Assembly: GCA_964016885.1 (NCBI GenBank)
Contig: OZ024740.1
Location: forward strand, 220,162,001 to 220,226,000
Direction: 5' to 3'
DNA from: Eledone cirrhosa
Taxonomy: Eukaryota
Length of the DNA: 64,000 nucleotides
In this document: one piece after another, positions 9,617 through 10,791 of the stretch
Layout of the letters: each line of letters begins with the position of its first letter
How positions within the stretch are numbered: position 1 is the first letter of the stretch
Position numbers and translations under genes: made by a program
Notes under the pieces: generated by a model
Databases searched by the model: none
Told to the model about the DNA's origin: nothing
Seen by the model: only the letters and a program-made list of their open reading frames with translations

Positions 9617-10791
9617 CATGATGGCTGCCCCCTCGTTATCGAGTATGGCCATTGCACAATAAAAAAAAAAAAAAAAAATAAAAAAATAAAAAAAAAAAAA
9701 AATAAAAAAAAAAAAAAATAAAAAAAAAAAAAAAAAAATAATAATAATAATAATAATAATAATAATAATAATAAATAAATAAATTAAAAAAAAAAAAAAA
9801 AAAAAAAAAAAAAAAAAAGATATATATATATATATATATATACACACACATATATACACATACATATATATACACACATATATACACACATACATACACA
9901 TACATACATATATACACACACACATACATACACATACACCCACACATATATACACACATACACTAATAACAATAATAATAATAATAATAATAATAATAAT
10001 AATAATAATAATAGCAATAATAATAACAACGACAACAACAACAACAATATACATATTCATATATATATACACACACACGCACGCACACAAGCATATCTAC
10101 ACACACACACACACACACACACACACAAACACACGATAGCAACCAACAGCGCTGCGATCGAATGTGGCCCCCCAGCCCAGCCAATGATCCAAAATGTCTT
10201 GCACAGAGTCGGCAACCAAAACACCCACTGGGAATAGTCGGCTGTGGTTGGAGTTCGTGTACTTTTGCATGTCGCTTGAGTCCTCCTGCTGATTTACATT
10301 CTCTACCACATGTTTGGCAAGCATGATGAGTAGCATCTCCAACAGCAGCCTGGCAGTCAACCACTGGTCTTACTTTATGACTGCGAAGATGACTTTCGAG
10401 TCCAGCTTTGCTTAGGCAGAGTCTCGCACAGACGCTGCATGCCAGAAACATAGGAGGACCCTCGCCGTCTGGAAGTGCAACAGCAATACCCTTCCTCACG
10501 TCCCGCTTTACTTTCTCGTGTGCGATTCGAGATGCCTCAAAGGCAACTTTTCCCTCACACACAGTCTTTCTCCATTTATTACGATCAGCAGCAACATTTT
10601 CCCATGTATCAGCAGAGATGTTAGCGTCTCTCAGAGAGGCCCTCAAGGAATCCCTACACCTCCCCCTTGGCCCATGCGGCGGTCGCCTTCCCTCAACCAA
10701 CTCTCCACAGAAGAGTTGTTTTGGTATTCTAGAATCCTTCATCCTGGCAAGGCGACCACTCCAACGGAGTCGCCGCCCAAGCACAAGAGCC
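9617..10791 (-). mobile_element. 5'-truncated RTE (BovB-like) LINE with three C-terminal C2H2 zinc fingers; apparently A-to-G hypermutated
   Basis: ORF 9963-10784 '[24 protein letters not shown]...CSVCARLCLSKAGLESHLRSH...CQTCGRECKSAGGLKRHAKVH...CRLCARHFGSLAGLGGH'; microsatellite-rich 3' UTR; terminus at 9617-9660 shared with 5581-6186. Confidence 0.88.

Follow-up and report, generated by a model that had tools for sequence, protein, structure and literature searches.

Clustered sense-strand A-to-G changes in a genomic LINE copy of Eledone cirrhosa point to ADAR editing of its RNA template

Introduction

ADAR-linked A-to-G hypermutation has been described for the avian retroviruses RAV-1 (Felder 1994) and avian leukosis virus (Hajjar and Linial 1995), in which clustered sense-strand A>G changes pass from edited RNA into DNA through reverse transcription (PMC8586724; here and below, articles cited by PMC number are drawn on in part). 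The LINE copy of Eledone cirrhosa described here shares these features, but it belongs to a non-LTR element, stands in a nuclear reference genome, is one of several such copies of two ages, and is accompanied by a recurrent low-level component across the family and its source lineage. In vertebrate genomes, DNA editing by APOBEC has likewise left strand-biased, clustered and motif-specific hypermutation, the work of a host deaminase, in integrated LTR retrotransposons (PMC4866542, PMC2873906). There, the changes are G>A and arise by C deamination on the cDNA of LTR elements, whereas here they are A>G, would stem from the RNA, and affect a LINE; that screen filtered for G>A, and the sections drawn on report 19 invertebrate genomes as negative (PMC4866542, PMC2873906). 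By analogy, the edits in our copy are the RNA-level counterpart of APOBEC-edited LTR elements, and would work like the ADAR hypermutation of avian proviruses.

At the level of transcripts, the A-to-I hyper-editing seen in repeat RNAs (PMC4365171) and the editing directed at repeats across the tissues of squid (PMC9068888) resemble the present case in cluster density, in depletion after a 5' G and in having repeats as substrate. Those edits are seen in RNA relative to DNA and commonly have a flanking inverted partner, whereas ours are seen in DNA and no such partner was found in the flanks searched. The published ADAR motif combines avoidance of a 5' G with preference for a 3' G (PMC4365171). 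As in the restriction of human L1 by ADAR1, ADAR would here be acting on a LINE ribonucleoprotein; in HeLa cells, however, ADAR1 did not edit L1 RNA (no edits in 2.5 kb) and restriction was independent of editing (PMC5224506), so that restriction is the feature of human L1 and the edits themselves are the evidence here.

In architecture, the element is like RTE-2_OV of Octopus vulgaris, a single-ORF RTE-clade LINE with an endonuclease, an RT and a C2H2 finger. Compared by description only, RTE-2_OV has 1109 aa and UTRs of about 600 nt, unlike the roughly 1180 aa, three fingers and 1.15 kb 5' UTR found here, and the sections of that article drawn on make no mention of edited copies (PMC9115989). 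Nor do the corresponding sections of PMC5974252 and PMC3941102 address the integration of edited RNA. We found no description of ADAR-edited LINE copies in genomic DNA in a literature search whose coverage of subscription journals was thin, and prior art is possible.

Results

The truncated copy and its family

The window is the whole 64,000-nt stretch of contig OZ024740.1 that was analysed, and the positions of features are those of the window. The copy under study (the window copy) belongs to a young RTE-type LINE family, and its ORF remnant, on the minus strand, comprises the final 216 codons of the LINE ORF. Its features are as follows (A>G is always given on the element's sense strand):

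9618..10791, minus strand: truncated LINE copy, about 1.17 kb out of a 5.2 kb element, 5'-truncated
10143..10791, minus strand: 3' end of the ORF, post-RT region plus three C2H2 zinc fingers
9618..10142, minus strand: 3' UTR with (GT)n, (TAT)n and poly-T tracts; 3' end conserved
10642..10791, minus strand: edit cluster 1, 21 A>G relative to sisters, at 10791, 10778, 10777, 10774, 10753, 10708, 10694, 10692, 10687, 10686, 10677, 10673-10671, 10666-10663, 10657, 10654 and 10642
10354..10560, minus strand: sparsely edited middle, with private A>G at 10560, 10558 and 10354
10144..10226, minus strand: edit cluster 2, 10 A>G, at 10226-10224, 10173-10169, 10150 and 10144
10088, 10045, 10042, 10027, 9963, 9940, 9877 and 9859, minus strand: the eight private A>G of the UTR
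10773, 10641, 10630, 10595 and 10190, minus strand: family-level G alleles in the window copy, A in the older subfamily

The copy stands integrated in the genome as assembled and is, from its sequence, a very young insertion. Its insertion site is a (TA)/(TATG) microsatellite, in which a target-site duplication is not resolvable. The 3' flanks of the copies L002-L030 show that most insertions of the family end in (TA)n or (TATG)n arrays, which suggests either microsatellite targeting or microsatellite growth at the 3' end.

Full-length sisters, such as L055-L057, measure about 5.2 kb and contain one open ORF of about 1180 aa with an AP endonuclease, an RT and three C2H2 fingers. The domains PF03372 and PF00078 fall within one 1180-aa frame, and no other non-repeat sense ORF of at least 150 aa is present. 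The 5' UTR spans 1.15 kb, the 3' end consists of short tandem repeats with no poly(A), and 5' truncation occurs in the family. The label RTE-type rests on this architecture and on motifs that we take to be those of RTE elements; among the 120 homologues listed in a search, identity is 48-66% and none bears a clade name.

A 27-letter motif with A or G allowed matched 1978 places, which puts the family at 1978 copies at least. Copies were classed as young when less than 0.8% from L055 and as older at about 3%; the older group omits copies more than 4.5% diverged, seven of which served purely as outgroup. Among 28 non-duplicate copies taken in chromosome order, six are young, 21 older and one more diverged, and 19 of the 22 young copies that reach the ORF start are free of stops and deletions. 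Same-locus duplicates were dropped (L031, L058, L062, L101 and L120; L059, L065 and L121; L015, L018, L021, L095, L096 and L125). Several copies (L009, L042, L043, L067, L090 and L115) align in two pieces, through inversions, deletions or duplications. The public run X4, labelled as a different organism, contains a 1257-nt contig that barely differs from the young subfamily over 10449-10790; this contig has A at 10630 and 10595, another X4 contig has A at 10190, and in this they are like the least edited young haplotypes.

The window also contains, on the plus strand at 5600-6190 and 63140-63720, two short non-autonomous elements with an RTE-like 3' end and one zinc-finger remnant, further copies of which adjoin L003, L004 and L025. 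The original prediction had used these elements, at 6060-6120 and 63590-63650, as comparators for our copy. They do read FKSLAGLKSH, but they are not members of the family: they have no blastn match to the ORF remnant and are 68-79% identical to part of the family's 5' UTR, and they were rejected as an ancestral reference. Other RT-encoding LINE fragments lie at 2100-3300, 4275-4590, 40597-41541, 49700-49945, 57418-57786 and 61260-61480, with 25-38% protein identity to the ORF end studied here.

Every substitution in the window copy is A>G

A search of the same genome gave 1886 candidate sisters, 40 of which were scored and 30 retrieved. Relative to its nearest sisters, L003 and L004, the window copy has 42 substitutions, and all 42 are sense-strand A>G (34 in the ORF and 8 in the UTR). 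No other substitution occurs in the 1125-1135 aligned bases, and the gaps are solely length differences in simple-repeat tracts. The changes affect 34 of 191 ORF adenines and 8 of about 105 UTR adenines; one of the 34, at 10791, is the junction base and possibly microhomology, leaving 41 unambiguous edits. Compared with each of 29 sisters, the ORF remnant shows 34-36 A>G and no other in-element substitution, the exceptions (one extra change in L011, one T>G in L015 and one gap in L025) being private to those sisters. Sister copies thus have A where the window copy has G, and the spectrum is neither symmetric nor of the CpG type, both as anticipated from the window alone; the ORF edits tallied at that stage are real, but the eight in the UTR had been overlooked.

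The 34 ORF edits are strongly clustered (p<0.0005 in 2000 shuffles preserving the 5' neighbour), with 21 in the 150 nt of 10642-10791, 10 in 10144-10226 and three in between, matching the concentrations predicted at about 10640-10790 and 10140-10235. By 5' neighbour, the ORF edits affect 19 of 66 adenines after A, 11 of 29 after T, 4 of 44 after C and none of 52 after G; overall, one of the 42 edits follows a G, compared with 57 of 296 adenines (p=0.0012), so that the expected depletion after G is present. The window copy has no 3' G preference, adenines being edited at 9 of 52 sites before G and 25 of 139 otherwise. It contains no G>A, and sense-strand G>A clusters of the APOBEC type are absent. 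As a control for ordinary mutation, the private changes of 21 older copies are strand-symmetric (n=274), with 59 G>A, 48 C>T, 20 A>G and 18 T>C.

At the protein level, the 34 ORF edits cause 18 amino-acid changes and the loss of the stop codon (TAG to TGG at 10144). This stop change had been proposed beforehand, as had broken motifs that prove to be private edits: cac>cgc (10753), tat>tgt (10708), KRYKDSLK>GRCRDSLR and, in the fingers, LKSH>LGGH and the last His>Arg (10150). Two further examples fail. GLESH, read as a change from GLKSH, is the family state and no edit, and the G at 10190 that underlies the FGS example is not private (A in 38 of 38 older copies, G in 39 of 43 young ones). The five family-level G alleles listed above, at which public runs read A, are likely older edits passed on by the source lineage. 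A G at 10442 and one UTR variant are common to the window copy and L002, L003, L004, L025 and L057, and this G is inherited from that sub-lineage. Among 24 matches to its most edited 80 nt, there were no daughters of the window insertion.

Six further heavily edited copies

The scan for other A>G-skewed copies that the original prediction had called for was productive: a seed search, together with five forced-G motif searches, yielded six in the same genome (L040, L110, L119, L122, L123 and L124). Matches to forced-G motifs include copies with a single ordinary change (8 of 10 in one search and 17 of 19 in another were not hyper-edited), and seven hyper-edited copies among about 2000 is a lower bound. 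A>G accounts for 41 of 66 changes in L040 and 22 of 25 in L110, and, in the 3' 2.1 kb, for 41 of 75 in L119, 41 of 69 in L124, 27 of 30 in L123 and 16 of 20 in L122; L123 and L122 have 5 and 8 additional A>G upstream. When the six are pooled, editing has reached 12.2% of adenines after A, 11.4% of those after T, 5.3% of those after C and 2.8% of those after G (p=8e-10), the bias being weaker in L040, where 5 of 54 edits follow G. Four of the six belong to the older subfamily, so that editing has happened repeatedly through time.

The three edited copies found first were short, and a length as small as that of the window copy is seen once among the 28 sampled copies, which had raised the possibility that editing causes 5' truncation. 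As a rule this was rejected: L122, L123 and L124 are long, two of them reach the ORF start, and L123 is full length with its ORF still open.

Two of the edited copies deserve description in their own right. L119 (L119:756-2644), an older edited copy, has lost an internal segment, and some 40 nt are triplicated in tandem in its A-rich stretch, the one that forms the main edit cluster of the window copy. L040 (L040:620-1770) is a head-to-head inversion whose two arms share about 200 nt of edited template and both finish in an (ATGT)-type repeat, as though a single RNA had been copied from the two ends of a cut target.

Strand controls and public reads

The inverted arms of L040 have 10 A>G in common on the element's sense strand, though they lie on opposite genomic strands, and have later diverged by 7 and 4 non-A>G changes. 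Because the arms share edits and then diverged separately, the edits were present before or at insertion. A 338-nt contig from the public run X1 equals L040:1273-1610 with no differences and covers the inversion junction and 34 A>G positions. This contig occurs in one of three runs of one sample (one of four runs overall) at a depth of 6.4, in a library of unrecorded kind, and the sample may be from the animal that was assembled. Edits in two opposed arms, together with the exact contig match, argue against assembly error.

None of the 23 public runs listed matched half of the words of the window insertion, no RNA run being listed, and its edited stretch is in none of the four public runs examined, which are dominated by the older subfamily; such a gap in contigs proves nothing about the insertion. 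At the edited sites these runs read A, which confirms the direction of change as A>G. A genome-wide control at a palindromic site found the sense A>G in 19 copies and the mirror-image T>C in 4 (p=0.003); the corresponding counts are 15 and 1 for the young type and 6 and 0 for the double change.

A>G bias throughout the family

To characterize variation in the family, allele direction was set by the older subfamily, and L122-L124 were excluded. In young copies, the ORF as a whole has 125 variable alleles, of which 70 are A>G, beside 14 G>A, 11 C>T, 7 T>C and 23 transversions. The 3' 2.1 kb of 43 young copies, 29 of which were picked by likeness to the window copy over the 3' 650 nt, give 43 A>G and 4 T>C among 73 alleles, with 5' G depleted (p=0.0015) and 3' G enriched (p=0.0075) at the A>G sites. 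The 5' 1.45 kb, for which up to 32 young and 25 older copies were retrieved afterwards, replicates the pattern (28 of 53 A>G; 5' G, p=0.0002; 3' G, p=0.014). At intermediate frequency, 18 of 20 alleles in the 3' 2.1 kb and 5 of 6 in the 5' 1.45 kb are A>G with ADAR-type neighbours, and the six young copies of the position-ordered sample show 27 A>G, 2 G>A, 1 C>T and 1 G>T.

Variable A>G alleles recur on different haplotypes, not every shared allele being an independent event. Four gametes occur in 90 of 153 pairs of A>G sites, all eight haplotypes occur at three A/G sites, and A>G sites less than 150 nt apart have a median r2 of 0.012, while four markers are linked over 1.9 kb. The same single sites vary at 20-80% in two separate sub-lineages. 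Some A/G sites are lineage markers, site 1661 going with 1696 and site 1849 with non-A>G markers.

The same bias extends to the changes that separate the older from the young majority sequence, where 30 of 72 are A>G: none of these 30 follows G (p=2e-5) and 15 precede G (p=0.011). Among A>G fixed in the lineage, i.e., present in at least 90% of young copies, 15 of 24 are silent, compared with 27 of 91 unselected edits (p=0.004). The other 42 changes are of different types, including 9 G>A in the young lineage, with polarity given by one to seven more diverged outgroup copies per site, often one.

Discussion

Editing of the RNA before reverse transcription

The original prediction held that a hyper-edited LINE RNA was reverse transcribed into the genome, and this core claim is supported by the A of the family, the substitution spectrum, the avoidance of a 5' G and the existence of other edited copies. 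We consider it very probable that the RNA template of the window copy was edited by ADAR before reverse transcription, a view based on the confinement of A>G to one strand, the clustering, the 5'-G avoidance, the recurrence in six copies and the presence of ADAR-domain genes. The ADAR deaminase domain PF02137 occurs at 12 places in the genome, with open deaminase exons at one locus, and two PF02137 exons at C6 score 222 and 148 bits; the host thus encodes a putative ADAR deaminase.

In the mechanism that we propose, a source copy of the L002/L003/L004/L025 sub-lineage would have been transcribed, and part of the LINE RNA would have been in a long double-stranded form, probably with antisense RNA of another copy of the family. 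ADAR would then have deaminated adenosines in a burst that reached about 18% of those in the ORF. Because reverse transcriptase reads inosine as G, the element's own RT would have copied the inosines as G during a germ-line insertion, with target-primed reverse transcription starting from the intact 3' end into a microsatellite and stopping after about 1.17 kb. Since the copy stands in the reference assembly, the insertion would have taken place in germ-line or early embryonic cells.

The double-stranded partner is likeliest to be antisense RNA from other copies. Self-folding as an explanation for the burst was rejected, edited adenines showing no excess of pairing over unedited ones in predicted folds (p=0.74); for the recurrent sites, the corresponding value is p=0.085. 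No inverted neighbour was found in the window, in the stretch before it, or in 12 flanks (about 10 kb) of five sub-lineage copies and L123. Because the edited adenines lie outside self-stems in the predicted folds and inverted neighbours are lacking in the stretches searched, an antisense partner in trans is probable. In the full-length RNA, the 5' UTR and the 3' UTR are predicted to pair through one 31-bp and two 23-bp helices, a prediction made with no shuffle control; such pairing could recruit ADAR and account for the UTR edits, but it does not cover edit cluster 1. In the full-length sister at L056:4289-9445, the first 400 nt or so of the 5' UTR are rich in A, (AC)n and (AAC)n; in the predicted fold they pair with the (UG)n, (UAU)n and poly-U tracts of the 3' UTR, which would join the two ends of the RNA.

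If the G's of the window copy were an artefact of assembly or polishing, introduced by edited RNA reads or by systematic base-calling error, one might expect what was seen in public data, where the insertion is in none of the four runs, and perhaps also the runs of G at former runs of A. However, sisters in the same assembly differ by only about 0.2-0.3%, a separate short-read contig equals L040 exactly, and RNA transcribed through L040 would show the edits as A>G in one arm but as T>C in the opposite one; together with the neighbour bias and the palindromic strand control, these points make an artefact exceedingly improbable. An error bias of the element's RT or of RNA polymerase, with occasional bursts and no deaminase, would likewise be sense-strand specific and present at insertion. 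Yet it would have to alter 18% of adenines with no other type of error in 1.1 kb, bring single sites to 20-80% in two separate sub-lineages, and reproduce a 5'-G avoidance and 3'-G preference that fit ADAR. From RT errors of the wobble type, one would expect mainly T>C or G>A, and both are rare here (7 and 14 of the 125 alleles in young ORFs), so that we regard this explanation as very unlikely. We attach a similarly small probability to another adenine deaminase, be it a tRNA-editing ADAT/TadA-like enzyme or an ADAD paralogue, with either the RNA or the single-stranded second DNA strand as its substrate. Edited adenines do lie in predicted unpaired A-runs, several PF02137 loci have no paralogue assignment, and strand alone cannot separate RNA from second-strand DNA; nevertheless, deamination of the first cDNA strand would yield T>C, which is absent, the neighbour pattern equals the published ADAR motif (PMC4365171), and squid repeat editing is broad across tissues (PMC9068888).

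For the family-wide A/G polymorphisms, and for this part alone, several source copies combined with recombination or gene conversion offer a further explanation, which we hold to be unlikely but less so than those above. In its favour, sites 1661/1696 and 1849 behave as lineage markers, and four gametes occur in 5 of 36 pairs with a C>T marker. But it leaves unexplained why A>G with ADAR-type neighbours makes up nearly all intermediate-frequency alleles, and linkage does not decay with distance (Spearman +0.20), close sites being unlinked. Under ADAR editing, most transcripts would be edited at a low level, with a few sites hit so frequently that their edits recur on different haplotypes; copies newly inserted with such edits would become sources, and selection would favour silent changes. 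Because edited copies become sources and a G cannot be edited back, the active lineage would accumulate A>G. We think it reasonably probable that no other single source contributes as much heritable mutation to the recently active LINE lineage as ADAR editing does, in a ratchet toward G under purifying selection.

The suggestion that editing of this kind serves as an anti-LINE defence is not supported. None of the 28 position-ordered copies is hyper-edited, the edited L123 keeps an open ORF, and edits appear to be inherited by the source lineage. Fixation in the population, the other side claim of the original prediction, is likewise not supported, the copy being very young.

RNA edits do not as a rule pass to offspring. 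In this LINE family, which has many intact ORFs, they show up in the DNA copies, so that the genome sequence by itself can test two questions: does ADAR edit the RNA of retrotransposons in the germ line, and does editing restrict LINEs or feed their evolution? A practical consequence is that A>G-rich divergence can inflate estimates of LINE age: the window copy seems 5% diverged, with no ordinary mutation. The frequency of G at each site in young copies also constitutes a prediction of the level of RNA editing in the gonad. Given the A>G bias throughout the family, RNA editing likely supplies much of the element's heritable mutation; if this is true, the DNA copies of the family would be a readable record of per-site germ-line editing, and the hyper-edited copies the tail of that distribution.
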